From IMG/VR virus record IMGVR_UViG_3300043447_000068, positions 1 to 64,000 of that record: DNA of 64,000 nt, one strand, 5' to 3'. The notes under the pieces were generated by a model. That model worked only from the letters and a program-made list of their open reading frames with translations. It was not told the DNA's origin and ran no database searches. This DNA comes from a virus (Duplodnaviria; Caudoviricetes). Shown piece by piece: positions 13,322-63,333 of this stretch (position 1 is its first letter; each line of letters starts with the position of its first letter). The position numbers were made by a program, and so were the translations under genes.

Positions 13322-14051
13322 ATTTAAAAGCCGTTCTCATTCTTTCTTCATTCTTAGCAATGAGTTCTGGGTTAGCCTTCTGCTCATCAGTTAGTGCAAA
13401 TTTTGCTCTAGTTGGTAGATCTGCTTTATCAGTATCTTTAACGTAATAGAATACAGCGATGCTCTCTCTGTTCTCGCCATTTGGTGCTGCGATCATCTCA
13501 GGCAATCCATGCCAGAAGTTTCCATCTGTTTCAAATATTACTGCACGATTAAACTTTGGAGATACAGATACAAGCTTTTCTCCTGGCTGACCATCTACAT
13601 CATTCCAGAACTCTAGCTCCCCACCCCAGGAATCTTGCCAGTTCTTGTTTAAGTAAATAATTATATTTAGCTTTCTGACAAGCCCAAGCTTTGGATGCAG
13701 CTTTGCATCCTGATGCAGATTTAGTCTGCCATTGCTTGCGTGCAGGTGCATTCCACCAGCGTGCAACCCATAGTCTGCGATAAGACCATCAATGCCAGTT
13801 AGCTCTTCAAGTGTGTCTGTGAATTCTTTTGTTGTTAGGTCAAAAAATGTTTTATAGAAATCAGTTGGGTACCAGTCCCAGTGAGTAGATAAAAGCTTTT
13901 CCTCAAACTCTGAGTTGTTTCTTGTTAGCCATCTTTCATCGTCATACGAGTAGAACTGATCTGATAACCTATCTGCCAGCTCAGGCTGTAGGAAGTCGTC
14001 AAGAATCCAGATACGTGTTGGCTTTTCTATAAACTCAATGTGCTGTGACAC
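13311..14051 (-). CDS. 2OG-Fe(II) oxygenase (prolyl-hydroxylase-like)
   Basis: HQD, IYLNKNW...GGELEFW, PKFNRAVIF, HG motifs. Confidence 0.85.
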   Translation of the reverse strand: MSQHIEFIEKPTRIWILDDFLQPELADRLSDQFYSYDDERWLTRNNSEFEEKLLSTHWDWYPTDFYKTFFDLTTKEFTDTLEELTGIDGLIADYGLHAGGMHLHASNGRLNLHQDAKLHPKLGLVRKLNIIIYLNKNWQDSWGGELEFWNDVDGQPGEKLVSVSPKFNRAVIFETDGNFWHGLPEMIAAPNGENRESIAVFYYVKDTDKADLPTRAKFALTDEQKANPELIAKNEERMRTAFKYGR

Positions 14052-16389: not shown

Positions 16390-16698
16390 TTAGCGAGTTA
16401 TGTACTTAAGTGCAGCAACCAAATTATTGATTGACTCTGCAGCAGTGAAGTACAAGTTCTTCTTCGCTCTATCTCCCTTATCTACGTTTGCCATCCAGGT
16501 TGCTTTAAAAGACATTTTTGCAGCAATTGCCTGTAGGCGTACTATTTCAATCGTTGCTAGTTGTAAAGGAATATCTGGCTTAACAATAAGCTTAGCAATA
16601 AAAGTTAATGCTGTTGTCAATTCCTCGTCTTGCATATAATCAGATATTTCTGCAAGACCGTTAATCATATCTAGAGTTGTTTGTCCTTCATTACTCAT
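16390..16698 (-). CDS. Hypothetical protein
   Basis: 102-aa helical ORF in operon context. Confidence 0.65.
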   Translation of the reverse strand: MSNEGQTTLDMINGLAEISDYMQDEELTTALTFIAKLIVKPDIPLQLATIEIVRLQAIAAKMSFKATWMANVDKGDRAKKNLYFTAAESINNLVAALKYITR

Positions 16699-17509
16699 TT
16701 ACAAACCCTGCAATCTGTGATTCATGAATTCCATCTTCGTTGCCCTGAGCATTATAGATCTCCCATGCTGCAATCATCTTTGGGTGCTGAGACACTTCTA
16801 GATTATATGCCTCACGCTTTTCATGGAAGAACATTGGATCAATTGGATTGTGCTGATTCATCCATCTGTAGTTTGTTACTGGGCAATAGTCAAAGCTTAC
16901 AATCTCGCAGAACTCTCCCTCTTTCCACTTACGCTTTGGTCGCCAGTGTACTTGATTGACAGCACTAAAGATAATGGCATCACCCTTCTTTAGCTCATAC
17001 TCCTTGTCATCAACCCAAAGAGTCCAGTCTTCAATATTCTGGTCAAGGCAGTAGTTGAATGTTACTAGGTTTTCATCTGCATCAAGGTGTGGTGGCAATG
17101 CTGATGCATACTTACCATCACCATAAGCCATGTTGTAATCAATATAGTTATAGTGTGTGAGCCTAATTGGATCCTTGTGAATTGGCTTGGCGTATGAATC
17201 CATTACCGCCTCAATTTCTGGAGGACACTCAAACTCAATTAGTAGTCTAGACATGTGAACAATCTTCTTTGGATGGAATCTAGTTTCACCGTAGTACTGC
17301 TCCTGAGTTCCCTGAAGACGGTCATACTGACCAGCAGTCATTAGGGCTCTATTCTTTTCAATAATGTCACGCAATTGCTTGACCTGATCATCGTTGAATG
17401 GTTTTTCTACATATATTGGCAATTCTTTATTGTATTTATCGAAATCTGTTAGCCACTTATGCATTGGAGCTGGGTTTAAAGGTACCCCAGTTCTTGGATC
17501 AATTTGCAT
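16691..17509 (-). CDS. 2OG-Fe(II) oxygenase-like, paralog 3 of a tandem triplet
   Basis: LPPHLD...TFNYCL...QVHWR. Confidence 0.7.
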   Translation of the reverse strand: MQIDPRTGVPLNPAPMHKWLTDFDKYNKELPIYVEKPFNDDQVKQLRDIIEKNRALMTAGQYDRLQGTQEQYYGETRFHPKKIVHMSRLLIEFECPPEIEAVMDSYAKPIHKDPIRLTHYNYIDYNMAYGDGKYASALPPHLDADENLVTFNYCLDQNIEDWTLWVDDKEYELKKGDAIIFSAVNQVHWRPKRKWKEGEFCEIVSFDYCPVTNYRWMNQHNPIDPMFFHEKREAYNLEVSQHPKMIAAWEIYNAQGNEDGIHESQIAGFVNE

Positions 17510-18077
17510 ATTTTTTCTCCTGTTCCCATTGTTTTTCGTATTTCTCTTTTTTTGCTTGCATTAAATCTTTGTGTTCAGCAGTTGTCTTCTCTGGATTCTT
17601 TCTGCTTAGGTGACAGAATATCATATCTACGTATTCTCCAGGGCCAAAATCCTTGTGAGTTCTCCAGTGAATCTGGTGGGTTCCGCTAAAGGTTAGTGCC
17701 TGATTATTTTCAAGAGTGAATTCTTTTTCCTCTACAACTATAGGCCAAGTTGTGTTACCGCCAAGCTGATAATCGAATGTAAATCTTTGTGATGGAAATG
17801 TATCGTCAAAATGTGGAGCAAGGTTTGGCAATGTAAAGTCACCATCTGCTACAGCATATCTTGCAAACTGATACTCAGTTAGCTCTAGGTCAGATTCTCC
17901 AATGCTGTCTTCGACTATCTTTACAATTTCCTGACAGATATCTTCTGGAAACATGAAGTTAGTTATTCTTTGATTATAAATAGCCTGGTAGTAGTACTGC
18001 TCTGAATCAGATATGATACCCCTGATTCTTTCAACAAGCTCATCACTAAATGGTTTGTCAATTATAACGTTTTTCAT
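17499..18077 (-). CDS. 2OG-Fe(II) oxygenase-like, paralog 2
   Basis: LAPHFD...TFDYQL..NTTWPI...QIHWR. Confidence 0.75.
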   Translation of the reverse strand: MKNVIIDKPFSDELVERIRGIISDSEQYYYQAIYNQRITNFMFPEDICQEIVKIVEDSIGESDLELTEYQFARYAVADGDFTLPNLAPHFDDTFPSQRFTFDYQLGGNTTWPIVVEEKEFTLENNQALTFSGTHQIHWRTHKDFGPGEYVDMIFCHLSRKNPEKTTAEHKDLMQAKKEKYEKQWEQEKKYAN

Positions 18078-18616
18078 TAATTATCCCTCAGCTTCATGTC
18101 AAAAAATATCATCTTTACGTATTCTTTATTTGTAAATTCTTTATCTATTCTACCATGAATCATTCTTCCTGGCAAGAACATTACTGCATCATTATTAGCA
18201 AGATCATATTCTGTGTCTTCTACGTATATTGGCCAGCTTGTATTTGCATCAATCTGATAATCAATAAGTAGAAAGTCCATATTATCTTTATGTGGAGTAA
18301 GAGATGGTGCTCCATATTCTCCAGAATATTCTGTATAGGTAGCACAGAAGAAATCTGCATCAATACCGTTTTCAGCAGCAACAGAATTAATCTTATTTAT
18401 AATGCTCTGAGGAAGCTCTAGATTATTAATCATAATCTTTCCAAGACTTACGTTCTGAATGTACATGCTCTTGTCATCTACGATGTCCTGTGGGAAAGGC
18501 TCCCCAGCAAACTCATTCCAAACAAATACCTTCTTGGTCAGCTTTTCGTGATTGATAATTTCCGATATCTGCTGAATCTCTAGTTCAGAGAACATGTCTA
18601 CAATATGCGTTTTCAT
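18077..18616 (-). CDS. 2OG-Fe(II) oxygenase-like, paralog 1
   Basis: LTPHKD...DYQI..NTSWPI...IHGR; start moved to MKTH, 7 nt below TATAAT (18623-18628). Confidence 0.75.
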   Translation of the reverse strand: MKTHIVDMFSELEIQQISEIINHEKLTKKVFVWNEFAGEPFPQDIVDDKSMYIQNVSLGKIMINNLELPQSIINKINSVAAENGIDADFFCATYTEYSGEYGAPSLTPHKDNMDFLLIDYQIDANTSWPIYVEDTEYDLANNDAVMFLPGRMIHGRIDKEFTNKEYVKMIFFDMKLRDN

Positions 18617-18623
18617 ATATCTA

Positions 18624-18908
18624 TTATACATCATCAATCAATTGCTCTAGAATCTCTAGCTCAATAATTGCCAATCTTACCTTCTGATTGCCCTCACCAA
18701 GAACAACGAAGATAGCTGGGTCTGAGTGGTTTTTTATGGCATCTGTAACTGCCTTAGCCCAGTTATCCTTATTGACTGTAAAACCTTTTGGATATTCCTT
18801 AAAGTCAACAGTAAAGTTATGCCATGTCGCATCACCCTTCTTAGTATTTCTACCAGAATTTTTGTGCTGCTTAGCACCAATGCGACTGCTCTCACCCCTC
18901 TCGCTCAT
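18624..18908 (-). CDS. Small PD-(D/E)XK nuclease, Hjc-like resolvase
   Basis: SG...KGDA...VDFK pattern. Confidence 0.55.
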   Translation of the reverse strand: MSERGESSRIGAKQHKNSGRNTKKGDATWHNFTVDFKEYPKGFTVNKDNWAKAVTDAIKNHSDPAIFVVLGEGNQKVRLAIIELEILEQLIDDV

Positions 18909-29928: not shown

Positions 29929-30852
29929 TCAATATATTATATCATTAGTATCTGCTGCCTGAAACTCAATCTCTATCTGGTGTGAGTTCCCCAGGTTTTG
30001 TAGCTCAAATACGATATTGCCATCTAGATCAAGGTAGGCTGAGCTATTGAATCCAGAAGGATCAGCTGTCACATCTGGAACATATTGGTATCTCTTTAGT
30101 GGATATTTGCTAAAAACTTGTTCTGATGTATTCTGAAGAGCAATCAGATTTGCACCGCCATAGATTGTTTCAATCTTATCCAAATTAGATATTTGATGAT
30201 ATCTAATATCAATTCCATCCACTAGGTCATGTCGTGCAAGGGTAAGGATTTCTGTTCCACCAATGTCCTCAAACAGAAGATCTGTCATCACCTCAACTGG
30301 TAACGACTCCTCATTCATCATGATTAAGTCTGGTGTGGCAGCCTTAGATGCCTTGTCTTCTCCTGTTGCTGGAGCCCCTGGGCTTGATGGCGTTGGTGAT
30401 ACGCCTCCACTACCTGAGTCATCCTCTTCTTCTACAGGTGGCTTTACAGGTGGCTTTACAGGTGGCTTTACAGGTGGCTTTACAGGTGGCTTTGGCGTAG
30501 GCTTGGGCTTTGCAGCAGGCTTAGCAGGTGGCTTAGCTGGAGCTGGCTTAATGTTTAGAATCTTTTTTTCTGCTGCAGTTAGAGTCTGCCCACCAGTTAG
30601 TTTTCTTAATGCTGCAGCTGCTTGATTAGCTTTTGCTAGGCTAGCTGCATTTGCTTTTCTTTCTGCTGCATCGGCACTGGTTGTGCTTGTGACTTTTGCA
30701 GGAGCTGCTGGCTTAGCTGGTGGTTTTAGTGACTGTGGCACTGATGGAGTCGCTGGCTTAAAGACTGGCAACAGTGGCTTTATTGGTGCTGCAGCCTTTG
30801 TAGCAGGTGCCTTTGGAGCAGGTCCAGCAGATGGATTTGGTTTTGCTGCCAT
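29929..30852 (-). CDS. Minor tail protein with Pro/Lys/Ala-rich N-terminal extension
   Basis: Low-complexity N half, globular C half. Confidence 0.6.
   Translation of the reverse strand: MAAKPNPSAGPAPKAPATKAAAPIKPLLPVFKPATPSVPQSLKPPAKPAAPAKVTSTTSADAAERKANAASLAKANQAAAALRKLTGGQTLTAAEKKILNIKPAPAKPPAKPAAKPKPTPKPPVKPPVKPPVKPPVKPPVEEEDDSGSGGVSPTPSSPGAPATGEDKASKAATPDLIMMNEESLPVEVMTDLLFEDIGGTEILTLARHDLVDGIDIRYHQISNLDKIETIYGGANLIALQNTSEQVFSKYPLKRYQYVPDVTADPSGFNSSAYLDLDGNIVFELQNLGNSHQIEIEFQAADTNDIIY
30433..30492. repeat. 12-bp tandem repeat x5 (encodes KPPV x5)
   Basis: TACAGGTGGCTT repeated five times exactly. Confidence 0.95.
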
Positions 30853-50319: not shown

Positions 50320-51954
50320 TTATTGGCTAGCTCTTCCTTCACCTTTTGGATTTCTTCCTGCAATAGTTGCAGTGTTGTCTGAAGCATTATTTGTTCTCTC
50401 TGCGTCTCTAGCATCATTTCCAGAACTATTTGGTGCCTCTGGCTTTGTCTCAAGTGGCTTGCCACCGTCGCCATCTGGTCTTGCACCAAATCCAAGTATC
50501 TCACGAGCTTCATCAGGAACAATAATCATGTTCTTTACATAACGCTCAAGGATCTGTGACTGAGCGATTTCATCTGTCAGAGTTAGCTCATTAAACTTGA
50601 ATTCAAGGATGTCTGTCTTTTCACGGATGATCTTGTTGATAATCTTCTGCATAGCATCTTGTCTTGGACGAGCTACCTGCTCTTTAAATGTACGATCTTG
50701 TGCAAGGGCTGCTGCAATTGCTGCAGAGTCTCCTCCACCAATCTTAGAAAGTGGTACTTGGTGAGCAACAAGAATGTCGTCACGATTACGGATACGATAC
50801 TCATTGAATGATGCTTCTTGAACACCATTCTCAACAGCCTCCATCTTAAACTCAACCTTGTTTGTGTCAGAGTCTCCAGGAAGTGGGATGTAAAGGGTTC
50901 TGTGGTTTGACCCCTTAAGGCTTGTCTGCAAGAATCTAAACATCTTATCTTCAGCATCTTCTGAAAGCTTTGCACCCTTTAGGGTAACTACATAACGTGG
51001 AACACCCTTGTTTGTAAAGTAGTCAATGTTGTATTGTGATGCTAGCTGGTCTCCATGTAGAGATGAAATAGCTGACATGATGTCTGGGACACCATAAAAA
51101 GTATTTAGTGGAGAGTATGACTTGAAGTGAATAATCTCATTTGGACGTGGGTCAGCTGTTACAGGGTTTTGGTTCTTTGCCTGGAAGTTTCTAAAGTATA
51201 CAACTCTATTTCCAATGATTTGCAAGTATCCATCACGAAGTCTACGAACACGCATTGTAGTTGATGGAATATGTCCTACATATCCAATCTCACCCTTAAC
51301 TGTTCTACCGATTTCAAGATATCCATTACCAGTAGCCTCATAGTCTGTCATTACCTTTGACATAACCTCAGTAAAAGATTCATCAAGATTTAGGCCTTCT
51401 AGCCAATCTCTCATCTCTACCTTCATACGTTCAATACGCTTTTGTGCCTTTTCTTTTGCACTGTCATTTGTCTGTGCTTCAATAGACATCATCGTTCTCT
51501 TTGAAATCTCAAAGTCATAGCCTAGGCCAACAATGTTTTCTACCTTGGCATCAATAGCTGCGTGATTAGCAAATGATGTGTCGTAGTAGTTTGCAAGTTC
51601 ATAGAGGTTCCATGGTGGAGTGATAACATCAAACATTCCATATCCATTGCGGTATACACGACCTGGATTAATTTCCTTAGAGTATGCCCCGTCTTTACCA
51701 CGATTTACTGCCAAAGCACTATCTTGGTATCCAAGGTTATTAACATCTACTCCAGTATTGACAACTCTGTTCTCAACTAGGTTGTCTGCTGATTTTGCAA
51801 GACGATCAGTTCTACGTCTAAAATTCTTTTCAATGCCTGAATATGTCTTTAGCTCATCCCAAGTCTTCATGAACGGATCATGATCTTTAAAAGGATCTTG
51901 CCCTGCATCTAGCTCTGGGATAGAGGCATTAACATATCTAATTTCATCTGACAT
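50320..51954 (-). CDS. Portal protein
   Basis: TGNGYLEI, EIIHF, YGVP, F.NKGVP, HQVP. Confidence 0.92.
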   Translation of the reverse strand: MSDEIRYVNASIPELDAGQDPFKDHDPFMKTWDELKTYSGIEKNFRRRTDRLAKSADNLVENRVVNTGVDVNNLGYQDSALAVNRGKDGAYSKEINPGRVYRNGYGMFDVITPPWNLYELANYYDTSFANHAAIDAKVENIVGLGYDFEISKRTMMSIEAQTNDSAKEKAQKRIERMKVEMRDWLEGLNLDESFTEVMSKVMTDYEATGNGYLEIGRTVKGEIGYVGHIPSTTMRVRRLRDGYLQIIGNRVVYFRNFQAKNQNPVTADPRPNEIIHFKSYSPLNTFYGVPDIMSAISSLHGDQLASQYNIDYFTNKGVPRYVVTLKGAKLSEDAEDKMFRFLQTSLKGSNHRTLYIPLPGDSDTNKVEFKMEAVENGVQEASFNEYRIRNRDDILVAHQVPLSKIGGGDSAAIAAALAQDRTFKEQVARPRQDAMQKIINKIIREKTDILEFKFNELTLTDEIAQSQILERYVKNMIIVPDEAREILGFGARPDGDGGKPLETKPEAPNSSGNDARDAERTNNASDNTATIAGRNPKGEGRASQ

Positions 51955-52352: not shown

Positions 52353-55300
52353 TTAAACAGAATTAATGGTGAAAAGGTTCGTTGATGAGTTAGAGATAAC
52401 CCTATATTTAGTTCTAAATAACCTTAATATTGATTTATCATCAACGACAAGTCTGGTTGTTCCAACGTATGCCTTATATATGTCTGATGGGTCTACTCCA
52501 TAGAAGTTTCTAGTTGATAGAACCAAGACCTCGTACCACTTAAAAATGCCATCCCAATATTCCCAGTCGTACTTGACTCTACCAGACTCTCGCACTCCAA
52601 ACCACGGTCTAACAGAGATGCTTTGAACTTGCTGGATTCTTGAAGAGTTGTAATGTGACAAGTTGTTAATAGTCAGTGGGCCAGTAATTCTGATAGATCC
52701 ACCATTAAGGCTGAAATCTAGATAGTTTGAGAATCCAATGCCAATTGCTGCCCACTGCTTAATTGTTAGGACTGGATCCTTAACAATGTTTCCATTTATG
52801 TAATAGCCAACACCGTTTTCAATCTGACCAGTCTTAACGTTGATAGCGTAAAGCTTTGCTCTGATTCCTTCTGGGTGTGTTGCCTCAATATAGAACTTTA
52901 GGTGTGTATCATTTGAAATAATCTCAAATACTTCCATTGGGCTGTATGGGAAAAAGTCATCATCAAACATTGCAAAGAACTGCATAGCAATCATCTTATA
53001 GGTAGCAACCTTTTCTTTATTTACTGGGATCTCAATGCCACGAGAGTTCTTTCCGTTGAAGAGGCCTCTTAGTCTGATACCGCTAGTTTTTGTGAGGTAT
53101 AAATAAGGTGTGCTGCCTTTATAGATGCTAAATGGGTTTTTGCTCTTGTAGTCGTAGTAGAATCCATTCTCAGTAAATGGGTACATGTCTGTTCCATATC
53201 TTGTACCTATAGCTGTTGGATGTTCGTTATTTAGAACTACTGATGACAACTCAAGACTTCCAATTGCTAATGGCTTATCTGATATCTTGTCAACTGAGAC
53301 CACGATCTCTGTAAACATGTTGGTATTCTTAAAATCAATTCCAGATGGAGGATAGATTATTACGTTATCCACAACCTCATATTTAGTGTTTATCCACTCT
53401 GATCCTGGAAGGATCATTCCGTCTCGTGGAGCCTCTACAATATTCGTATAGTATGCTGATGAGTAATCTGACTCTTCTGATATATCTTTAAAGTAAACAT
53501 AAGTTTTAATAAGCGACTTTGAAGTGTCATACTTGTAAGTCTGTCTTGCATTGTACATTAGGTCTGAATAGTCTGTGTATCCAGTATACAAATGATTGTC
53601 TAAATCACTATACTTCTTCTGTGATGGTATCGCAAACTTAGAGGATAATTCCTGATATGTCCACTCAGTGTCTGTCTCTAGCACTGCCACAGATTTTCCT
53701 GGTGATGGATATCCAATGTTAAACTGGATAAAGTCTAGGTCATAGTTTGTGTCTCCAGAAGCAGTTTTTACATACTGTCCAAAATAAGATAGAGGGATTG
53801 CAGATGCCCAAGATCCATTCATGGATCCATCAAAGTACATTGTTGATGAGTTTGAGTATGGCTTAATCGTGTAGCTAGCCTTGGTATTGTTTATTAGTCC
53901 TGCACCAGCGTGCTCAGCAACATTACCACCATCATAAATCATTTGCCAAAATGTTGTACTGTAGAGTCCACCATCAGCATCATCCAAAAGACTGTCAACA
54001 AGCTCTGCATCCCAAACTAGTCCATTTGGTGCAAAGTAGTCTGACAAAGATTCTGAGGCTTTTTGGTTTGAGAAAGATACTGAGTATATCTTTCCTACAA
54101 ATGTATCATTCTCAGATGTACCTCCGATGTATAGAGACAAAGAACTCTTCTTAGAGAAGAAAGATGAAACCCTGTTTCCAAAGTATTTAGATAGTCTTTC
54201 AATATCAAGCCCAACAGCAAATTGCTCTCCTGGGAAGTATGATAGCGTTTCAGCAAAAGTCTCTGTTGTTCCTGAGAATGACAATGTATAGGTAATTCCA
54301 GAGCTTGTAAGCTTGATAGAAAGGTTATCTCCAGAAAGCTTTTCTCTTAGCTCAAACAGGGTTTGTGGTGCTTGTGGAGTAGCTGTTGATTTAAAGACAC
54401 CATAAAAACTTGAAAGATCATCTGGCAAAATATTAATGCTCTCAAGATACATATAAGAGTTTTGTGGCAAAACTACAAACTTTGAAGACTCATTCTGTAG
54501 AGCTAGGTTATTTTGAAGTATCTCTGCCTGTGTCTGTGTTGGAGACACTATTGATATAGAGCTATAGTTTGGGATTCTAAGATAGTCTGTGTCACTCAGC
54601 AAATTATTTTTAATGCCCTTAGACCAGCTACCAATCTTTGGATATGAGTAATTGCTTGAATACTTTGAGAACTGATAGTCAACGGAGATATTCTTTCCTC
54701 CGTAAGCAACGTTTAGAGTCTCTGGATTTTCAACTCCCTGGCCATAAACCCAACGTCTTTTTGCAATGATTGGAGATATTGGATATGTGTATATAGAAAC
54801 TGGTCCAACTTCAAAAAGATCTATAGAGTCATATGAATATATTCCAATCCAGTCTTGCTCAAGGTTTCCACTCTTTTCTTCGGGTAGGGTTAGTGTTGAC
54901 CTATCTACAATGATTTCCCCTACCTGTTCTCCATTAACCAATAGAGCGATTCTGTCATGGGATATAGAGACATGTACAAGCATTGGCCTATTCCATTCAG
55001 ACACGTAGTGTGAGCAAGACCTATCCCCAATCTTTAGCTTTAGGAACGGTCCAGAGACATATAGTCCATCTAATGATGCAATTGGGCCAATTATCTTTTG
55101 ATCATTTTCTGATGATGGATCAATCTTAATCCAAGACTCTAGGGTGTAGTTCTTATTTTTGCCAAGCTGATTTAGGAATCCTAGTCCTGGAATTAGTATT
55201 GATGGCTTGCCAGAAGCATTTGGGGAGACAGACATTGATGATCCTGCTCCATACACCATCGGAATTCCTGCATTTCTACCAAGCAAACGATTGTTTAGGC

Positions 55301-56012
55301 ATATCGCATATCCATCCTTAGTTGATTCTGCTACAGCTAGCAACTTAACTGCCTGTGTGCCTGAAGCTATGCCATAGATATTCTCAATGATTGTTTCTGG
55401 ATGTACTCCAGATGATGATGAGTTAAACTCTTCTGACCATTGACCTAGAGATATGCCATTTGCCAAAAAGAATACTGGGTCTGTAGTTGCATCTGACAAA
55501 AACTCAACCTCAACAAATAGGTTAAAGCTTGAGTCTAGATTGTATGGTCTGTCGAAAGTTTCAGACAGAAACATCCACTTTCCGCTAACTGCTGTTGAAA
55601 ATCTTTTTGCGACACGATATTCTCCATATGTTGGATCGTTATACAAGAATCCAATAGTTACAGCCATAATTCTTTCTGTTGATGAATAGAAAAATGTTGA
55701 AATGGTGAATGTTGACAAGAAATCGTTTAAGAAGTTAAAGTCTGAGAATTCTGGGCTTACTGCTGTAACCGTTTTAACGTTATTGGCATTTCCAGTATTT
55801 GATGTATTTATCTTAAATACAGCATCTTCTTGCATTGGAGTTGATAGGGTTGATGTGGTTTCAACAGTACCATTCGTCAACTCCCAGTTGGATATATTCT
55901 TCTGGGTATCAGAAAGTATGGAGATGTAGTCTGCCTTATCCTGCAAAGGCCAAAGCCCCAGGGGGTGTTCCTTTAAAATTTTTGAAGCATATAGGCTAAG
56001 AGAGGCTGTCAT
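52353..56012 (-). CDS. Large virion protein with concanavalin-A/LamG-like domain
   Basis: YTLESWIKI...LLVNGEQVG pattern; 1219 aa. Confidence 0.6.
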   Translation of the reverse strand: MTASLSLYASKILKEHPLGLWPLQDKADYISILSDTQKNISNWELTNGTVETTSTLSTPMQEDAVFKINTSNTGNANNVKTVTAVSPEFSDFNFLNDFLSTFTISTFFYSSTERIMAVTIGFLYNDPTYGEYRVAKRFSTAVSGKWMFLSETFDRPYNLDSSFNLFVEVEFLSDATTDPVFFLANGISLGQWSEEFNSSSSGVHPETIIENIYGIASGTQAVKLLAVAESTKDGYAICLNNRLLGRNAGIPMVYGAGSSMSVSPNASGKPSILIPGLGFLNQLGKNKNYTLESWIKIDPSSENDQKIIGPIASLDGLYVSGPFLKLKIGDRSCSHYVSEWNRPMLVHVSISHDRIALLVNGEQVGEIIVDRSTLTLPEEKSGNLEQDWIGIYSYDSIDLFEVGPVSIYTYPISPIIAKRRWVYGQGVENPETLNVAYGGKNISVDYQFSKYSSNYSYPKIGSWSKGIKNNLLSDTDYLRIPNYSSISIVSPTQTQAEILQNNLALQNESSKFVVLPQNSYMYLESINILPDDLSSFYGVFKSTATPQAPQTLFELREKLSGDNLSIKLTSSGITYTLSFSGTTETFAETLSYFPGEQFAVGLDIERLSKYFGNRVSSFFSKKSSLSLYIGGTSENDTFVGKIYSVSFSNQKASESLSDYFAPNGLVWDAELVDSLLDDADGGLYSTTFWQMIYDGGNVAEHAGAGLINNTKASYTIKPYSNSSTMYFDGSMNGSWASAIPLSYFGQYVKTASGDTNYDLDFIQFNIGYPSPGKSVAVLETDTEWTYQELSSKFAIPSQKKYSDLDNHLYTGYTDYSDLMYNARQTYKYDTSKSLIKTYVYFKDISEESDYSSAYYTNIVEAPRDGMILPGSEWINTKYEVVDNVIIYPPSGIDFKNTNMFTEIVVSVDKISDKPLAIGSLELSSVVLNNEHPTAIGTRYGTDMYPFTENGFYYDYKSKNPFSIYKGSTPYLYLTKTSGIRLRGLFNGKNSRGIEIPVNKEKVATYKMIAMQFFAMFDDDFFPYSPMEVFEIISNDTHLKFYIEATHPEGIRAKLYAINVKTGQIENGVGYYINGNIVKDPVLTIKQWAAIGIGFSNYLDFSLNGGSIRITGPLTINNLSHYNSSRIQQVQSISVRPWFGVRESGRVKYDWEYWDGIFKWYEVLVLSTRNFYGVDPSDIYKAYVGTTRLVVDDKSILRLFRTKYRVISNSSTNLFTINSV

Positions 56013-56027
56013 TGTATATATATTTTA

Positions 56028-56555
56028 TCATACTATACGTGTAAACCAGCGAGGTGTTGTGTATCTGATGCCACTAGAGATAGCTTTTACGCCATGAACA
56101 TAATCTGGATTATCTGGAAATGTTAGCAAGTCTCCTGGCTTTGGCTTATAGCTAATGTCATACTCTGGGAAGTATATCTCCCCTCCGTCATAATCATTAT
56201 TTATGTATATGAGTGTTGCTATATCATTTGGCTTGCTAGCATCAAAGTGCTCATGCATACCCCAGCCTGGTTCAAATCTAGCTATGTGTGTCATTTCTGG
56301 CTTAAAGCCTTGGAAGTCTCCCTCATAGGAATGTGTGACAAATCTATAGACTCTCATGCCCCACTCTGTAGCTAGTTGGCGAATCTCATGAGTTCTCTCA
56401 TCACTGTTTTTAAATGTATTTACTGTGAACTCTTTTTCGCCATTACCAAATTCATTGAATTCTTGATCGTAGTCAACTGAGTACTCATGTAGCTTCTGTG
56501 CCACGTCCTTTGGCATAAAGCCCTTAACATAGTGTATCTGTGATTCTTTACTCAT
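56028..56555 (-). CDS. 2OG-Fe(II) oxygenase, prolyl 4-hydroxylase (P4Hc)-like
   Basis: HFD, YINNDYDGGEIYF, KPKPGDLLTFP, HGV...G.RY. Confidence 0.88.
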   Translation of the reverse strand: MSKESQIHYVKGFMPKDVAQKLHEYSVDYDQEFNEFGNGEKEFTVNTFKNSDERTHEIRQLATEWGMRVYRFVTHSYEGDFQGFKPEMTHIARFEPGWGMHEHFDASKPNDIATLIYINNDYDGGEIYFPEYDISYKPKPGDLLTFPDNPDYVHGVKAISSGIRYTTPRWFTRIV

Positions 56556-56710
56556 CTAAAACTCATTCCATTATTTTCGTGTCTTGGCATATTGCTTGCA
56601 TCGCAGTCTTGGCAATCCAATCGTACTATGCCAGTAACTGGACAAGCTGCACCCTTTGTCACCTTGTGACCTACAAAGAAACACTTTGCTCTGAGCATCC
56701 AGTTTTTCAT
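56552..56710 (-). CDS. 52-aa Cys/His-rich protein (not in ORF track)
   Basis: Hand translation MKNWMLRAKCFFVGHKVTKGAACPVTGIVRLDCQDCDASNMPRHENNGMSFR; overlaps both neighbours. Confidence 0.7.
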   Translation of the reverse strand: MKNWMLRAKCFFVGHKVTKGAACPVTGIVRLDCQDCDASNMPRHENNGMSFR

Positions 56711-57354
56711 TAGTTAAGCCTTGTCCATGTTTGAGCATCTTCATCGCTGATAAATGTTCTTGGAGCTATGTCATAAGCAATTGTTATTCTTTGCCCATCT
56801 ACTCTCCAGTTACCCATTCCATGTGGATGGCCAACCTCTGAAACAACAAGTCTATTGTTCTTATTAACATTTATCTTTATGTTGTTTGGATCCTTAAATA
56901 TCTTGTAAGCAGTTATAGAAGGTTCTGCGTTAACGCAATAATATCCATGGAACACTGGTGAGCCCACACCATTCATGTGTTCGTGCCACTTGTCATCGTT
57001 ATCAAGTGGTGATACATCCCACATATCTTCTTTTGCATTTCTGTTATACCAACCATGAAGGAACCATTCCTGAGAATCATAATCAATCTCGTAATAGTCG
57101 CATGCTTCATGTAGGACATCATTAAGAGCCTGCTTTAGCTTTTCGATCTGGGGATTACCAAACTCAAACAGATTGTATTCTGACAATAGTGCTGTACCAG
57201 CACCTGATGGCCTATTGCCATATATTTTTGCCATGTCATCTGTTAGCTCAATAATCTCACCAGATCTAAGCTTATCGTCAAAATCTATAATCCAATCAGA
57301 CAACAACTCAAGGTCGTTATCTAAATCTCTGATAAAGAATTTTTGATCTTTCAT
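56710..57354 (-). CDS. 2OG-Fe(II) oxygenase-like (HxH...H), paralog C
   Basis: WHEH...FHGYY...AEPS...GHPH...RITIAYD. Confidence 0.75.
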   Translation of the reverse strand: MKDQKFFIRDLDNDLELLSDWIIDFDDKLRSGEIIELTDDMAKIYGNRPSGAGTALLSEYNLFEFGNPQIEKLKQALNDVLHEACDYYEIDYDSQEWFLHGWYNRNAKEDMWDVSPLDNDDKWHEHMNGVGSPVFHGYYCVNAEPSITAYKIFKDPNNIKINVNKNNRLVVSEVGHPHGMGNWRVDGQRITIAYDIAPRTFISDEDAQTWTRLN

Positions 57355-58031
57355 TATACTAGTGGAATCCAGTGCTGCTCTAGACCTGCGTCCTGACTTC
57401 CAATATCATTAATACTTCTAGTATCATATGCTATTGTAATTCTACGCTTGTCCTTGTTACCCCACCAGCCACGGGTATGTGGATGCCCAGTTTCAGATAG
57501 AACAGCTCTGAAGTTTTTGTTAATATTTTCAAATGGCTCAGTCTTATCTATTCTGTAGTGTGTAACAGATGGCTCTGCAAAAACAGAGAAGTATCCATGT
57601 AGGTCTGGAATACCAAGACCACCACAGTGCTCATGAAGATTTGGTTCAATCATTGTTTCTGCGTAATGCTCTTCATCTCCATGATCAGCTGGCTCAATAT
57701 TAATCCATCCCTGGATATAGTATGCCTGCTCTTCAAAGTTCTTGTCATAGTATTCGCATGCTTCTTTTGTCATAGAACTAACTGCTGCAAAAAGCTTTCT
57801 AATTACTGGGTGGTGAAGTTGAAACACATTGTACTTGCCAAGTGTTCGTGTTGTCATACCGCCCTTTTCATAGTATGCTTGTGCCTCTTCTGCAGATATG
57901 CCTGGAAACTTGCCATCAAGCATGTCCTTTTCACGAGCCTCGCAGAATGAATAAAGGTCGTCTAGTTCACTTTGTGAGATATCCAGATATCTTTCAAAAA
58001 ATTTCTGTGGTGGCTTTGTCATGGCTATCAT
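57354..58031 (-). CDS. 2OG-Fe(II) oxygenase-like, paralog B
   Basis: LHEH...HGYF...AEPS...GHPH...RITIAYD. Confidence 0.75.
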   Translation of the reverse strand: MIAMTKPPQKFFERYLDISQSELDDLYSFCEAREKDMLDGKFPGISAEEAQAYYEKGGMTTRTLGKYNVFQLHHPVIRKLFAAVSSMTKEACEYYDKNFEEQAYYIQGWINIEPADHGDEEHYAETMIEPNLHEHCGGLGIPDLHGYFSVFAEPSVTHYRIDKTEPFENINKNFRAVLSETGHPHTRGWWGNKDKRRITIAYDTRSINDIGSQDAGLEQHWIPLV

Positions 58032-58693
58032 CTCAGAGGAATCCAGTGCTGCTCTGCAGTATATCCACCACGCTGCAAGTATGCCATAGGTGTAACGTCA
58101 TAGGCTACGGTGATTCTTGGACCATCCCAAGACCAATCTCCCATTGCGTGTGGGTGTCCCATTTCTGACAGTATTGCACGATTGTTCTTGTTTATATTTT
58201 CAACCTCATTGTCAAAAACAATGTAGTGTGTTGATGAAGGCTCTGCTGCTACTGAGTAATATCCATGGAAGTCTGGAGCTCCAGGGCCACCATGCTCGTG
58301 CCAGTTTAGCTTACCATTACCAGAGTGGTTAATATTAAACCAACCTTGAATCATAAACTTCTGTTCGTCAAAATCTATTTCGTAGTGGTCGCAAGCTTCT
58401 CTCACCATATCGCCAACAGCCTTGTACAATTCATAAATTCCATCGATGTGGAATTGGAAAACGTTGTACTGTCTCCACTTCATGGTGGAAATGCTATTGG
58501 AGTCTTTCCATGCTTCGAATGGCGAAACTGGAGTTACCCCAGGAATCTTGGCCTCTTCGATCAATGCGTATCTATCTTGTAACTCTTTTGTAAGTTTATC
58601 TAGATCATTATCTAGGAATCTCTCAAAGAATTTGTGCCCCTGTGTCGTAGTGCTTATGCTACGAAGAGGTGTCTGGTCTTTATACATGCCCAT
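58028..58693 (-). CDS. 2OG-Fe(II) oxygenase-like, paralog A
   Basis: WHEH...FHGYY...AEPS...GHPH...RITVAYD. Confidence 0.75.
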   Translation of the reverse strand: MGMYKDQTPLRSISTTTQGHKFFERFLDNDLDKLTKELQDRYALIEEAKIPGVTPVSPFEAWKDSNSISTMKWRQYNVFQFHIDGIYELYKAVGDMVREACDHYEIDFDEQKFMIQGWFNINHSGNGKLNWHEHGGPGAPDFHGYYSVAAEPSSTHYIVFDNEVENINKNNRAILSEMGHPHAMGDWSWDGPRITVAYDVTPMAYLQRGGYTAEQHWIPLR

Positions 58694-58742
58694 ACTCCGT
58701 TCTATGTATAATATTATTATACACTATACCAGAGTCTGGTGT

Positions 58743-59540
58743 CTATCTGAAGGCAAATACGCTAAATCTAGGTGTGAATCCAAACACACCGAAGAAGCTG
58801 AACACACCAAATACTGGTGTAAATCCGAAAACACCGAATGTTGGGACAAATCCAAATACTGAGAATGGCACAAAGCCAAACACACCAAAAGTAGGAACAA
58901 ACCCAAACACGCCAAAGAAGCTGAAGACAGAAAATGGTACGAACGAGAATGTCGTTACGCTTCCAGATGCTGCAGAAGCTACAGATCTACCATTTGCATT
59001 ATCTGCATATACCGTATATGTCTGTGCTGTTCCCTGCTCCTGAGTAATATTTACAGAGGTAGAAGAGGTGTTAGCTGCTTTTCCGTCATTAGAAGTAATG
59101 TAGTAGTTAGTAATTGACTTACCACCATTAGCTGGTGCATTCCAAGATACTGTATCGTAGTCAGCACCGTATGGTGATGAAGCACCAACTCCGCCTGGAG
59201 CAGCTGGAACTGTTGTGATTGTTATTCCAGATGATGCATCTGATGAGGGTGAATCTCCATAGCTGTTAGTTGCCTTGACTGTAAAAGTTGGAGTTGTACC
59301 AGTAGCAATTCCAGTAACTACAATTGGAGAAGATGATCCAGTTGCTGATTGACCAGTTGATGCTGTAATCGTATATGAAGTTGCTGGTTGTGAGTTTCCT
59401 GGAAGAGAGAATGACACTGAGGCAGCACCATCATCATAAGCCCTATTGGTACCAACGTCAGTTGCTGTAACACCAGTTGGTGCTAGTGGCTGCAAGAAGT
59501 CATTTGACTGCTGCGAGTGTCTACCTGCTCTTTTGCTCAT
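58743..59540 (-). CDS. Fibre/accessory virion protein: two FN3 domains and a Phe-rich repeat tail
   Basis: FN3 signatures (PTGVTAT...FTVKATNSYGDS; VSWNAPANGG...ITNYYI) and a 68-aa C-terminal repeat. Confidence 0.8.
   Translation of the reverse strand: MSKRAGRHSQQSNDFLQPLAPTGVTATDVGTNRAYDDGAASVSFSLPGNSQPATSYTITASTGQSATGSSSPIVVTGIATGTTPTFTVKATNSYGDSPSSDASSGITITTVPAAPGGVGASSPYGADYDTVSWNAPANGGKSITNYYITSNDGKAANTSSTSVNITQEQGTAQTYTVYADNANGRSVASAASGSVTTFSFVPFSVFSFFGVFGFVPTFGVFGFVPFSVFGFVPTFGVFGFTPVFGVFSFFGVFGFTPRFSVFAFR
58746..58949 (-). repeat. Coding repeat F[GS]VF[GSA]F x8 with Pro-containing linkers
   Basis: 26 Phe in 68 residues; synonymous codons vary between units. Confidence 0.9.
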
Positions 59541-59563: not shown

Positions 59564-61192
59564 TTACGCTGAAAGGTCTCCGTAGACAACCCATGTGTTT
59601 GCTGCTCTCTTCATAAGAGTTGCAGAAGACCATTGAGTTCTCAACTTTAGACCTGGTGTTGCGTTTACAGTAACTCCACCTGCACCTGCAATTGTAACCT
59701 GTCCAGTAGAAGTCTGGAGGATATCAAGAGTGGTTCCGACTGGGTAGTTTACTGTTGAATCTGCTGGGATTGTTAGAGTTGTTGCTGAAGAGCTTCCAAC
59801 TTCAATAAGAGTATCTCTTTCATTAAGGTTTGACAATGTGTATGACGCTGTCTTCTGAGAGATTGTAGTGATAGATGGAACACCCTGCTTTGTCTGAATA
59901 CCATCTGAGAATTCTACGCCACCGAGCTTTAGTGTATCGAAATTAGCTGTAGCGAAGTCAACCTCAGAGTCAGTAGGCTCTGCACCATTAGAGATAAGCT
60001 TCCACTTACCATCAGATGCGTCACGAACAAGACCAGCGTGAGGGTGGTTTCCACCATTATTGTCAGATGCTCCATAAGCACCATAGATACCAATGTCAAG
60101 AACGTCAGTAGAATACTGGTTCTTAGCTAGGTAGATAAGAGAGTCTGTTACTGCAAGATTCTGAGAATTAACAGTTGTAGTTGTTCCAGTAACGTTTAGA
60201 TTACCTGTTATCTCAACATCAGCAGCAGTTAGTGTTCCAGTAAAAGTTGGATTAGCCTTTGGAGCGTATGTAGCTGCTGCTGTGGCTTCTGCTGCTTCCT
60301 GTGCGTTGTCTGCCTTTGCCTGAGCACCCGTCTGTGTCTCTAGCTCTGCTGTATCAGCAATGCCATGCACGTTAGTTGTGTCAGAGTTATGTGTTGAAAC
60401 AGCACCTGAAACATCTGTAGCGGTTGCTAGAACTGAAGTGTCTGCAATACCGTGGACATTTGTAGTATCTGAGTTGTGGTCAGATACTGCTGTTGAAAGA
60501 TCTGTTGCTGTTGCAATTGTAGCATCTACACCAATTGTCAATGAGTTTGTGCTGTCATTGTATGTTGTGACAATACCATCTACACCAGAAAGCATAGTAG
60601 CAACTACATCCTGAGCCTTCTCATTTGTGAAATATTGGTTAGTTCCTTCTGCAACAGAGGTTGTTGTAAGAGTTTCTAGGAATGTGTCAATTCCGTCAAC
60701 TCTTGTGTCTAGGGTGTTTGCTCTTCCTGTAAGGGTTGTGCTAAGGTCTCCAATTGACTCAACTGCTGACTGTAGGTCTGTATTTAGTGTTGAGACTGAT
60801 GTCTGTAGTGGTGTCACTGCATCAGAAATAGCAGTATTAACAATACCATTGCTGTCATTAATAGCAGCAGCTATTTCGCTAAGTGTGTCAAGGGTGTTTG
60901 GAGCATTCTGAATAAGGTTTGCAAGCTGAGTGATTGGAATCTGTGCGTCTCCATCAAGTGTTGCAACACCGTTCTCTGCACCCTTCTCTGTTAGCTGAAT
61001 GTAGTCATCAAGGCTTCCACCAAGATCTTCAAGGTTCTTAAAGTATGACAAAGCAGACCAGGTAGTTAGGCCATCACCCATTTTGAACTGGTTGGTGTCT
61101 GTTTCAAAACCAATTTCTCCAGCTGCAAGCACTGGGTTTACTGAGGTCCACTGTTCCGCAGTACCTCTACGCTGTTGCATTCTTGTTGCCAT
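59564..61192 (-). CDS. Tail fibre protein (Mtd/hyaluronidase-type N-terminal anchor)
   Basis: QQRRGTAEQW...NPVLAAGEIGFETDT..FK.GDG; internal HNSDTTNVHGIADT x2. Confidence 0.8.
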   Translation of the reverse strand: MATRMQQRRGTAEQWTSVNPVLAAGEIGFETDTNQFKMGDGLTTWSALSYFKNLEDLGGSLDDYIQLTEKGAENGVATLDGDAQIPITQLANLIQNAPNTLDTLSEIAAAINDSNGIVNTAISDAVTPLQTSVSTLNTDLQSAVESIGDLSTTLTGRANTLDTRVDGIDTFLETLTTTSVAEGTNQYFTNEKAQDVVATMLSGVDGIVTTYNDSTNSLTIGVDATIATATDLSTAVSDHNSDTTNVHGIADTSVLATATDVSGAVSTHNSDTTNVHGIADTAELETQTGAQAKADNAQEAAEATAAATYAPKANPTFTGTLTAADVEITGNLNVTGTTTTVNSQNLAVTDSLIYLAKNQYSTDVLDIGIYGAYGASDNNGGNHPHAGLVRDASDGKWKLISNGAEPTDSEVDFATANFDTLKLGGVEFSDGIQTKQGVPSITTISQKTASYTLSNLNERDTLIEVGSSSATTLTIPADSTVNYPVGTTLDILQTSTGQVTIAGAGGVTVNATPGLKLRTQWSSATLMKRAANTWVVYGDLSA

Positions 61193-61249: not shown

Positions 61250-61711
61250 TTAGTTAAAATTATCTGAAACGGTTCCGCCATCGAAGAGTAGTGAGAACTC
61301 TGTTGATGATGGACTACCGCCATCTATTCCACTTGACATAGGGCTTTGTGGGATTGATCCACCTTCACGGAAAGTGGTTGTAATAAGACCATTTCCGCCA
61401 ATAGATGTATCGTGAATGTGCTGTGCAACGTTTAATGTGTCATCGATAGTTGCAATTGTTGTCCAACCAGTTTCTGTGTGGTAGACATTAAGTCTTTGTG
61501 TTACGGTATCATACCAAAATGCACCATTAGATGGTGAAGAAGGGGCAGTAGAGGCAACAGCAGCTCCTCCAGCATTAGCATCTACGTAAGCCTTAGTAGC
61601 TACGTGAGTTGCATCAGTTGGGTCGCTAGCAACGATGGGTCCACCAAAGACTCCACCCTCTGCTACTTGAATTCCATTTTTTACCTTGAAATCCTTATTT
61701 ACTGTTGCCAT
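61250..61711 (-). CDS. Short fibre-associated protein
   Basis: MATVNKDFKVK start, HVATKAYVD, DGG motifs. Confidence 0.65.
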   Translation of the reverse strand: MATVNKDFKVKNGIQVAEGGVFGGPIVASDPTDATHVATKAYVDANAGGAAVASTAPSSPSNGAFWYDTVTQRLNVYHTETGWTTIATIDDTLNVAQHIHDTSIGGNGLITTTFREGGSIPQSPMSSGIDGGSPSSTEFSLLFDGGTVSDNFN

Positions 61712-61728: not shown

Positions 61729-63333
61729 TTACTTAATGATTGTTCCAAATACAGTTACAATAGAATTGTTGTTAGCTGTAGTGACACGAAGTCTTACGTT
61801 ACCGCCATTAACATCTGCTGTAATTGTTGATGCAGAACCGTTGGTTCCTACAACAGCATATTCTGTAATTGCAATGTTGTCTGCAGAGTCAAGAGTAATA
61901 ATTACCTTTGAAAGCTCTGTGTGTGAGCCATAAGCAACCTTAACTGTGTATTCTGCTGAACGGTATACAGCTGAGTCGAACTCGTGTGCTGTTACCTGGC
62001 TAGCTGTAGCAACTGTAGCCTGAGTAGCGACATTAGTAACAATGTTATTAAGGTCAATCTCAGTAAAGTTAGGAACTACAGCCTCAAGTGCTGATACTGC
62101 ACGTGCATCTGTGAAGTATAGGTTGCTTGAACCTTCTTCAAGATCATCAGTGTCAGAATCTGCAACACCATTTTCAGCAACAAAGTCAAACTTCTGTGTA
62201 CCAGTATTGTAAGATACCGAAATGTTTGTCTGAGTTCCACCATTGATTGTTGCTGCGATAGCATCAACTGCACGGGCATCTGTGAAGTATAGTCCTCCAC
62301 CAGGTGTTCCTTCTGGAATATCTACAGTTGTAAGAGCACCAATTTCTGAGTCTGCGTAAGACTTAGCATTATTCTCTGCTGTAGTTGCGTATCCTTGAGC
62401 ATTTTGGTCAGCTTGTGCAAGTGCATCATTGTATGTGTCTGTTCCTACTGCATCTACATACTGCTTTGTTGCTGCTGCTAGAGCCTGTGTTGGGTCTGCT
62501 GCAAGAACAAGCTCGCCAGTCATTGTGTCGCCAGACTTCTGAACCTTTTCACCAATAGATGTTGTAAGGTTTGTAATTGTGTCTGGTGAATCACCAAGTG
62601 CTGCAGCCAATTCATTTAGTGTATCAAGAAGTGCTGGTGCTGAATCAACTAGGCCTGAAACCGCAAGACCAATCTCTGTATTTGTCTTGTATGCTGACCA
62701 AGCCTTATCTGTAGCATTTGAAGAATCGTCAATCTTGTTATCTGCATATAGATTAGCATTTGATTCTGCAGTTGCTGCAGCTCCATATGCATCATATGTT
62801 GTAGATAGGTTAAGGTTTGTAATTGCGTTATCTGTGTATGTAGCTGCATTCTGTTCTGCTTGTGCTGCAGAGCCTACTGCGTCATAGTTTACTGCAAGTC
62901 CATCAGCATACGCTTGAGTTGCTACTGCTTGACCCCAAATCTTTGTGGTGCCATCTGCGTTTAGATTGATATCTCCACTGCCAGTAGAAATAGTTACATT
63001 CTGATCAGCTGTAACTTCTGTGCTTCCACCCTGTGCAGATGATAGAGCAAGTACTCCTTCGTCTGAAAGGAATCCAGCATCACCAATGATTACTCCTGGT
63101 GCAATAAGCTGATTGCTTAGCTCAATTTGAGCTGCTACAAAGTTACCATTACCGTCACGCTTTACGACAGTGTTTGGTGTGTTCTCAGGGGTTGCTGTAC
63201 CACCAATGAGATCAACGATGTAGTCTTGGTCTTCTTGCTTCTTGGTTAGAACGTCGTAGTTATTGACGGTAGCTGTAGCACCTTCAACAACGAGTCCACT
63301 CTTAACCTTAAAGTCTTTAGTGACTGTTGCCAT
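61729..63333 (-). CDS. Tail fibre-like protein
   Basis: MATVTKDFKVK start, AATKQYVD, LYFTDARAV repeats. Confidence 0.7.
   Translation of the reverse strand: MATVTKDFKVKSGLVVEGATATVNNYDVLTKKQEDQDYIVDLIGGTATPENTPNTVVKRDGNGNFVAAQIELSNQLIAPGVIIGDAGFLSDEGVLALSSAQGGSTEVTADQNVTISTGSGDINLNADGTTKIWGQAVATQAYADGLAVNYDAVGSAAQAEQNAATYTDNAITNLNLSTTYDAYGAAATAESNANLYADNKIDDSSNATDKAWSAYKTNTEIGLAVSGLVDSAPALLDTLNELAAALGDSPDTITNLTTSIGEKVQKSGDTMTGELVLAADPTQALAAATKQYVDAVGTDTYNDALAQADQNAQGYATTAENNAKSYADSEIGALTTVDIPEGTPGGGLYFTDARAVDAIAATINGGTQTNISVSYNTGTQKFDFVAENGVADSDTDDLEEGSSNLYFTDARAVSALEAVVPNFTEIDLNNIVTNVATQATVATASQVTAHEFDSAVYRSAEYTVKVAYGSHTELSKVIITLDSADNIAITEYAVVGTNGSASTITADVNGGNVRLRVTTANNNSIVTVFGTIIK

Follow-up and report, generated by a model that had tools for sequence, protein, structure and literature searches.

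A Phenylalanine-Rich Repeat Protein and a Cassette of Predicted Fe(II)/2-Oxoglutarate Oxygenases Occur Together in a Clade of Uncultured Long-Tailed Phages

Introduction

In a 64,000-nucleotide (nt) stretch of viral DNA, hereafter the window (positions 1 to 64,000 of the IMG/VR record IMGVR_UViG_3300043447_000068), a gene whose product ends in a phenylalanine-rich repeat is followed directly by a cassette of five genes that encode three paralogous oxygenases (oxA, oxB, and oxC), a 52-residue micro-protein and a further oxygenase of the prolyl-hydroxylase type (table 1). Among related phages this repeat-bearing gene, which we call the tail gene after the C-terminal tail of its product, and the oxygenases are either both present or both absent, and inside the clade the link between them is real. 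We propose that the tail is the substrate of the cassette's enzymes and that a modified tail is exposed on the virion, a proposal that we put forward tentatively and judge slightly more apt to fail than to hold. Few of the unexplained genes in aquatic phages are as common as those for oxygenases of the Fe(II)/2-oxoglutarate (2OG) type, and a candidate substrate lying beside a set of them is of some general interest.

Joint Occurrence of the Tail Gene and the Oxygenases

A total of 65 IMG/VR loci were collected by means of the tail protein and 79 more by means of the portal protein, a route independent of the tail, and the genes at each locus were classified with profiles of three enzyme families, the oxA, PF13640, and DUF6065 types. 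In all 64 loci with a tail gene of the FN3 type and downstream sequence, from one to eight oxygenase-type genes stand directly behind the tail gene. Altogether the two partners are found together at about 80 loci and are both missing from 10, with no discordant locus; the co-occurrence across related phages that the initial annotation had proposed as a check is thus found within the clade. The ten loci with neither belong to sister phages recovered through the portal, which have kept the fiber gene, the gene for a 1219-residue protein, and the portal gene and which lack the tail gene and the local oxygenases. Five of these 10 sister records, of which one is 85% complete, are devoid of the tail gene and of PF13640 genes along their whole length. 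On the portal tree, the joint state of presence or absence changes at least four to five times.

The type of enzyme also follows the type of repeat. Tails built of FxxFxF or FxFxP units are accompanied by one to four oxA-type genes and the micro-protein, mostly followed by a single PF13640 gene; tails built of FFPP or xFFAPP are accompanied by four to seven PF13640 genes plus a DUF6065 gene, and by no oxA. Two loci, L081 and L142, had at first been taken to show that the cassette is swapped as a unit. This argument was withdrawn, since on a second tree a single change of repeat class suffices.

The initial annotation had compared the arrangement to a precursor with its tailoring enzymes. The adjacency and the co-inheritance of the two partners agree with that comparison; its other customary elements were missing, as neither a leader, a recognition domain, nor a release protease gene was found in the cassette with Pfam or PHROG.

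The Repeat Protein

The 265-residue product of the tail gene is an FN3 domain protein (E 4.3e-7, 30.5 bits; Pfam cut-off 25). AlphaFold2 (AF2) predicts two seven-strand beta-sandwiches, with a pLDDT above 90 over residues 20–195. Our recount of the C-terminal tail agrees exactly with its first description: the last 68 residues comprise eight F[GS]VF[GSA]F units, 26 Phe (38.2%) and 6 Pro, the units being joined by VP, VPT, TPV, and TPR linkers and the gene ending in ...FSVFAFR, with FR as the terminus. The codons of the tail are mixed (14 TTT and 12 TTC for Phe, with every Gly and every Val codon, four of each, in use) and Tandem Repeats Finder detects no DNA-level repeat in its coding region. 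The repeat is therefore held at the protein level, as had been supposed. Another supposition, that the repeat forms a beta-solenoid or an amyloid-like tip, did not fare as well: in the AF2 monomer the tail has a pLDDT below 50, residues 200–265 are without secondary structure, and the tail is accordingly predicted to be disordered. Nor does it contain a G-X-Y run that would suggest a collagen-like triple helix, its units being of 6–8 residues.

Homologs of the tail protein fall into 647 clusters. An Atlas search returned only viral FN3 clusters, and when the region and the tail protein were compared by blastn and tblastn with 50,697 deposited phage genomes, no match emerged. Throughout the family the FN3 part is conserved, and the tail is hypervariable in its unit and period and constant in its make-up of aromatic residues, Pro, and small residues. 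Variants in close relatives include FGVFGFxP, FSFxP, and PFGFS; more distant relatives have FFPP or [GSVA]FFAPP, and others have (GAF)n, YSFTP, or a PQPVP stretch with a Cys knot. Two of these genes (L128:1348-2961 and L135:542-2056) encode about 25 Gly-Ala-Phe triplets that give weak matches to the Collagen family of Pfam, and in L135 a (PQPVPV)n stretch and a Cys-rich knot precede the repeat.

A Hint-type domain of 150–165 residues, predicted to be self-cleaving, comes after the repeat at 34 of the 65 loci anchored on the tail; the first Cys of this domain is invariant, and HN is often found at its end. The profile of the domain matches the bacterial intein-like domain 2lwy (1.3e-5) and inteins, while staying below the Pfam gathering scores. 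Like other short forms, the tail gene of the window lacks this domain and ends near the place where cleavage is predicted to occur. Some phages of the FFPP class have a second, larger protein, Cys-rich, with PTPPA linkers and 725–1142 residues long, which ends in the same FFPP repeat plus Hint domain (L032:423-3851, also L036, L048, L037, L018, and L020); at three of these six loci an additional PF13640 gene lies behind it, after two small open reading frames (ORFs).

The Oxygenase Cassette

The motifs HEH...HGY, GHPH, and RITxAYD are present in oxA, oxB, and oxC alike, and the reading of the cassette as three paralogous HxH...HPH oxygenases, a Cys-rich protein and a P4Hc-like HxD...H enzyme was confirmed motif by motif. 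An alignment of 46 members of the oxA family has H132, H134, H143, E151, H182, R193, and T195 invariant. The AF2 model of oxA (phrog_2696) has a pLDDT of 92.4 and the double-stranded beta-helix fold expected of the Fe(II)/2OG superfamily, and with this model Foldseek finds 138 PDB matches at E<=0.001, nearly all of them 2OG oxygenases, so that the original assignment to the Fe/2OG type is supported. The best are 3bvc (E 2e-6) and 2rg4 (5e-6), two uncharacterized proteins from the Roseobacter group; ThoJ is third, and AsqJ, FtmOx1, PHD2, and the prolyl 4-hydroxylase (P4H) of Pseudomonas putida are also among the matches. In oxA the iron would be held by H132-x-H134 and by H182, the spacing of 48 residues being typical, and the invariance of H132-x-H134 makes His, rather than Asp or Glu, the predicted second ligand. 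Three-His metal sites exist in other cupins. The likely anchor for the C5-carboxylate of 2OG is R193-I-T195, which lies 11 residues past H182, is invariant in the 46 sequences, and at the level of sequence fits the RxS/T rule.

Pfam has nothing meaningful to say about oxA, oxB, oxC, or the micro-protein even at E 10; PF13759 likewise fails to match any of the three enzymes at that level, and the oxA alignment profile found nothing among the PDB sequences. In a search of 1.84 billion representative proteins, the oxA family comprised 415 clusters (50% identity). Of ten distant members, seven have sub-threshold matches to PF13759 (14–24 bits; cut-off 27), which places the family beside PF13759 as a divergent sister whose site is HxH...H...RxT and not HxD...H; 3bvc and 2rg4 are presumably members of PF13759. 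With hhalign, no relation was seen between the alignments of the oxA, PF13640, and DUF6065 types, and a search of the PDB sequences with the DUF6065 type came back empty. In the deposited phage genomes, the only match to oxA, at 31%, is in Synechococcus phage ACG-2014b.

The micro-protein is probably, from its Cys and His residues, a metal-binding ribbon, and in all class-I relatives its C..GH..CPVT..CxxC..H motif is kept directly 3' of the oxA genes. The last enzyme, of 175 residues, is by its score against PF13640 (E 9e-9, 36.6 bits; cut-off 27) and its intact HxD...H...R motif of the prolyl-hydroxylase type, and its sequence matches in the PDB include P3H1 (2.6e-6) and the P4H of Bacillus anthracis (2e-3). 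The PF13640 enzymes of the FFPP class match the B. anthracis enzyme as well (3e-7), and their partner tails are rich in Pro-Pro. Elsewhere there are natural fusions in which an oxA-like domain is joined to a PF13640 domain (P0332) or to an N-terminal CxxC...CxxC zinc finger (P0319); these suggest that the parts of the cassette work together.

The five genes of the unit are translationally coupled by overlapping start and stop codons. As the initial annotation had noted, a separate TATAAT lies downstream of the repeat (58716-58721, minus strand). The sequence TAGACA-18-TATAAT to which it belongs scores 11/12 and is the best promoter-like site of the region, where the number of such sites does not exceed that in shuffled sequences. 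The motif GTGTATAAT recurs in the corresponding gap of 7 of the 9 relatives checked, which suggests a type of phage promoter with TG immediately before the -10 element; it precedes the oxygenase unit in most close relatives (L004-L014). The gap behind the tail gene contains no terminator-like site.

Genomic Setting

The source of the window is a 79-kb record estimated to be 73% complete. All genes of the window are on the minus strand. Matches to PHROG families identify a portal protein (50320-51954), a protease, a major capsid protein, a 2345-residue tape measure protein, DnaB, a DNA polymerase, and a terminase, and the virus is on this account a long-tailed phage. By portal sequence, its nearest deposited relatives are Streptomyces phages of about 131 kb (46% identity), and Streptomyces phages are also the closest cultured kin of the clade. 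The cassette is one copy of a type carried by a large clade of uncultured long-tailed phages of about 110 kb.

In the order of transcription, the fiber-like genes come first upstream of the portal gene and are followed by the tail gene, the five coupled genes, the gene for the 1219-residue protein, and a gene for a 128-residue protein (table 1). The initial annotation had spoken of a fiber in a tail-fiber cluster. The neighbors are indeed fiber-like, as judged from the Mtd_N domain and PHROG matches; the cluster lies, however, upstream of the portal gene and outside the tail module, and the product of the tail gene is itself a small protein with two Ig-like domains. Since only 23 nt separate the tail gene from the fiber gene upstream, there is no room for a promoter and the tail protein would be made together with the fiber proteins. 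The C-terminal part of the 542-residue fiber-like protein is kept beside the tail gene in all relatives and could be the docking place of the tail protein; its last ~120 residues are 60–80% identical even where the tail protein is only 40–50% identical. The gene for the 1219-residue protein is retained in the sister phages that lack the cassette.

Two regions farther away may also be mentioned. The Pro-rich 307-residue protein of table 1 comes just after a 1420-residue minor tail protein and has five KPPV units. In the stretch 16691-18637 (minus strand), Pfam gave just one weak match to Cupin_2.

Table 1. Features of the tail gene, the oxygenase cassette, and their surroundings in the window
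Feature	Position	Strand	Basis
Fiber-like genes	61729-63333, 61250-61711	-	Pfam/PHROG tail-fiber families
542-residue fiber-like protein with Mtd_N head, directly upstream of the tail gene	59564..61192	-	Pfam, PHROG
Tail gene, 265-residue product: conserved N-terminal peptide, two FN3/Ig-like domains, Phe-rich tail	58743..59540	-	ORF, Pfam, AF2
68-residue C-terminal tail, eight F[GS]VF[GSA]F units	58746..58949	-	Residue counts, codons, AF2
Promoter-like site TAGACA-18-TATAAT, in the 49 nt that separate the tail gene from oxA	58716..58745	-	11/12 positions
oxA, 221 residues, predicted HxH-type double-stranded beta-helix oxygenase (H132, H134, H182, R193, T195)	58028..58693	-	AF2, Foldseek, alignment
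oxB, 225 residues, paralog of oxA (46% identity), same motifs	57354..58031	-
oxC, 214 residues, paralog of oxA (42% identity), same motifs	56710..57354	-
52-residue Cys4/His micro-protein (C10, H15, C23, C33, C36, H44)	56552..56710	-	Conserved motif
175-residue prolyl-hydroxylase-type Fe(II)/2OG oxygenase (HFD103-105, H154, R164)	56028..56555	-	PF13640
1219-residue protein (big1219), family unassigned, between the cassette and the portal gene	52353..56012	-	Pfam, PHROG, comparison of loci
Alternative candidate substrate: 307-residue tail-module protein with (PAKP)n/(KPPV)n	29929..30852	-	47% Pro over 30 residues

Discussion

We infer that the Phe-rich tail is what the cassette enzymes act upon. 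On this proposal, a small accessory protein, in which two FN3 domains stand between a conserved N-terminal peptide and a hypervariable, disordered tail, would be made with the fiber genes, and the oxygenase unit, with its three HxH-type Fe(II) oxygenases, its Zn- or Fe-binding micro-protein partner, and its one 2OG oxygenase of the prolyl-hydroxylase type, would be transcribed from its own promoter, starting 25 nt behind the tail gene. Late in infection, the enzymes would hydroxylate residues of this tail: its six Pro, in F-[VT]-P contexts, would be the targets of the P4H-type enzyme, and another position, possibly the beta-carbon of Phe or of a neighboring residue, would be that of the HxH-type enzymes. 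Such a hydroxylation could alter the solubility, stiffness, or stickiness of a tail that we suppose to be exposed on the virion, and so aid adsorption.

This proposal is partly supported by the tracking of repeat type by enzyme type, by the joint changes on the portal tree, by the invariance of the catalytic residues, and by the coupling of the genes. In some relatives, the site of the cassette holds genes resembling Asp/Asn beta-hydroxylases, sulfotransferases, or glycosyltransferases, which we also count in its favor. A more sweeping version, in which the virions of the whole clade bear a disordered aromatic and Pro-containing "sticky tail" that is hydroxylated by co-evolving oxygenases on Pro, and possibly on the Phe beta-carbon, and in which swaps of the cassette retune adsorption, is one that we consider doubtful.

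The most serious competitor to the tail as substrate is that the oxygenases are accessory genes in an insertion hotspot, linked to the tail gene by synteny only and acting on host proteins, nucleic acids, small molecules, or the 2OG pool. We regard this as a real possibility that nonetheless is rather more likely wrong than right. The P4H of P. putida, for example, acts on the translation factor EF-Tu. Several of our results weigh against the tail as substrate, and some of them fit such an accessory role. First, the tail gene and the enzymes are adjacent, so that one deletion or insertion would move both; the phylogenetically independent pairs number only four, all concordant (sign test p 0.125), and for repeat class against enzyme class there is a single independent pair. 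The absence of PF13640 genes throughout the genomes of the tail-less sisters is as well explained by a trait of the lineage or its hosts as by a link to a substrate. Second, the slot between the tail gene and the 1219-residue gene holds in relatives the class II ribonucleotide reductase gene nrdJ, a short-chain dehydrogenase/reductase (SDR) gene, or an epimerase gene, which marks it as a hotspot for accessory genes; GT2 glycosyltransferase genes and the sulfotransferase-like and Asp/Asn beta-hydroxylase-like genes already mentioned occupy the same slot in various relatives. Examples of its occupants are found at L116:3803-5836, L102:1600-3727, L132:1024-1722, and L131:1254-1820. Third, the association has its irregularities. 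Two tail-bearing loci, L116 and L135, have no oxA or PF13640 gene in 34–58 kb and only a DUF6065-like neighbor, and in L128 the PF13640 genes are 7.6 kb from the tail gene. The window itself has at least one further PF13640/PF13661 gene outside the cassette (246 residues; 13311-14051, minus strand; E 5e-16). Fourth, the relatives of the enzymes outside the clade have no such partner. Of 80 loci with distant oxA-like genes in other phage backgrounds, only one has an aromatic low-complexity ORF within 6 kb and two have Pro-rich ORFs nearby, and in cyanophage ACG-2014b four oxygenases stand in a row with no repeat protein in the vicinity; the link between tail and enzymes is therefore specific to the clade and not a property of the enzyme superfamily. 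Finally, there are only six Pro in the tail of the window, and the cassette has a promoter-like site of its own. Earlier proposals for the 2OG oxygenases of cyanophages, DNA repair and 2OG handling (PMC3037559), would suit an accessory role.

Against the accessory role stand the complete lack of discordant loci together with at least four joint changes on the portal tree, and the fact that the enzyme family switches along with the chemistry of the repeat. Moreover, the enzymes are always immediately behind the tail gene and the other genes of the island farther on, and the solved structures most closely related to the PF13640 members are those of peptidyl-prolyl hydroxylases.

Alternatively, the P4H-type enzyme, and perhaps the others, could modify a different protein of the virion, the best candidate being the product of 29929-30852 or else the neighboring fibers, and the Phe-rich tail would then be an adhesin, hydrophobic or cohesive, that is left unmodified. 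The 307-residue protein has a richer supply of Pro than the tail with its six, and its PAKP and KPPV units resemble the (Pro-Ala-Pro-Lys)n substrate of the prolyl 4-hydroxylase of the virus PBCV-1. Its gene, on the other hand, is 25 kb away, and in relatives of the FFPP class the Pro-rich sequence is the tail itself; we consider a substrate elsewhere in the virion improbable. That the tail is not a functional peptide at all, and merely a slippage-prone low-complexity read-through or a mis-called ORF, is scarcely credible and already disfavored: the opposite strand is also open across the repeat and AF2 finds no structure in the tail, but two well-folded FN3 domains precede the tail in the same reading frame, its composition is conserved in 647 clusters while codons, period, and unit number vary, and in relatives a Hint domain follows it in frame.

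Taking the tail again as the substrate, we can compare the module with systems already known; a search of the literature on phage Phe-rich repeats, on Hint plus FN3 domains, and on phage hydroxyproline found no paper about it. The nearest precedent is a virus, PBCV-1, which likewise combines an Fe/2OG enzyme of the P4H type (PDB 5c5t) with repetitive candidate substrates. The genome of PBCV-1 has Pro-rich ORFs with (Pro-Ala-Pro-Lys)n repeats, and its P4H is active on peptides. The enzyme 5c5t is among the sequence matches of a PF13640 enzyme of one of our relatives. The present case differs in that it concerns a bacteriophage, in that the candidate substrate is adjacent and co-inherited, and in that the repeat is dominated by Phe instead of Pro and Lys; the three HxH-type oxygenases with their metal micro-protein, and the Hint cap in relatives, are further differences. 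Among solved proteins, the B. anthracis P4H (3itq, 5hv0) comes closest in sequence to the PF13640 enzymes of the module; it is a prokaryotic enzyme that has been proposed to act on a repetitive, collagen-like surface filament. The tail of the window, unlike collagen, is not Gly-X-Y and has a period of 6–8, and only relatives such as L128 and L135 have (GAF)n. For oxA, the best structural matches are the putative 2OG oxygenases of the PF13759/TIGR02466 type, from which oxA, oxB, and oxC are nonetheless set apart as a family of their own.

The order of a repetitive peptide followed by several tailoring oxygenases also recalls the pathways of ribosomally synthesized and post-translationally modified peptides (RiPPs); ThoJ of the thioholgamide pathway (6zyk) has the third-best fold match to oxA. 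Here, however, the part of a "precursor" would fall to the end of a folded two-domain protein made with structural genes, and the product would stay attached to it; the Hint domain of the relatives would cut off a C-terminal domain and not release the repeat. That domain is akin to the Hint domains of the BIL and Hedgehog types (2lwy), with their invariant first Cys, and is absent from the window's gene. By analogy, the tail may be likened to the FG-repeat nucleoporins, the extensins, and the mussel foot proteins, which are disordered, aromatic-rich, and of low complexity and in which composition counts for more than register, although it has no homology to any of them. In extensins and in mussel foot proteins, hydroxylation tunes adhesion.

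The published proposals of DNA repair and 2OG handling (PMC3037559) are not backed by a substrate. A tail that is adjacent to the enzymes, lost and gained with them, and matched to them in chemistry offers a concrete substrate hypothesis that can be approached without a cultured host. Should the hypothesis fail, the cassette would still mark a hypervariable island of a large, uncultured clade of actinophage-like viruses. Should it hold, a first substrate would have been found for the orphan 2OG oxygenases that abound in aquatic phages, phages would have an equivalent of collagen, extensins, mussel adhesives, and other hydroxylated structural proteins, and enzymatic post-translational hydroxylation would join the means by which phages diversify their surfaces, with the HxH-type oxygenase and its micro-protein as a new family.

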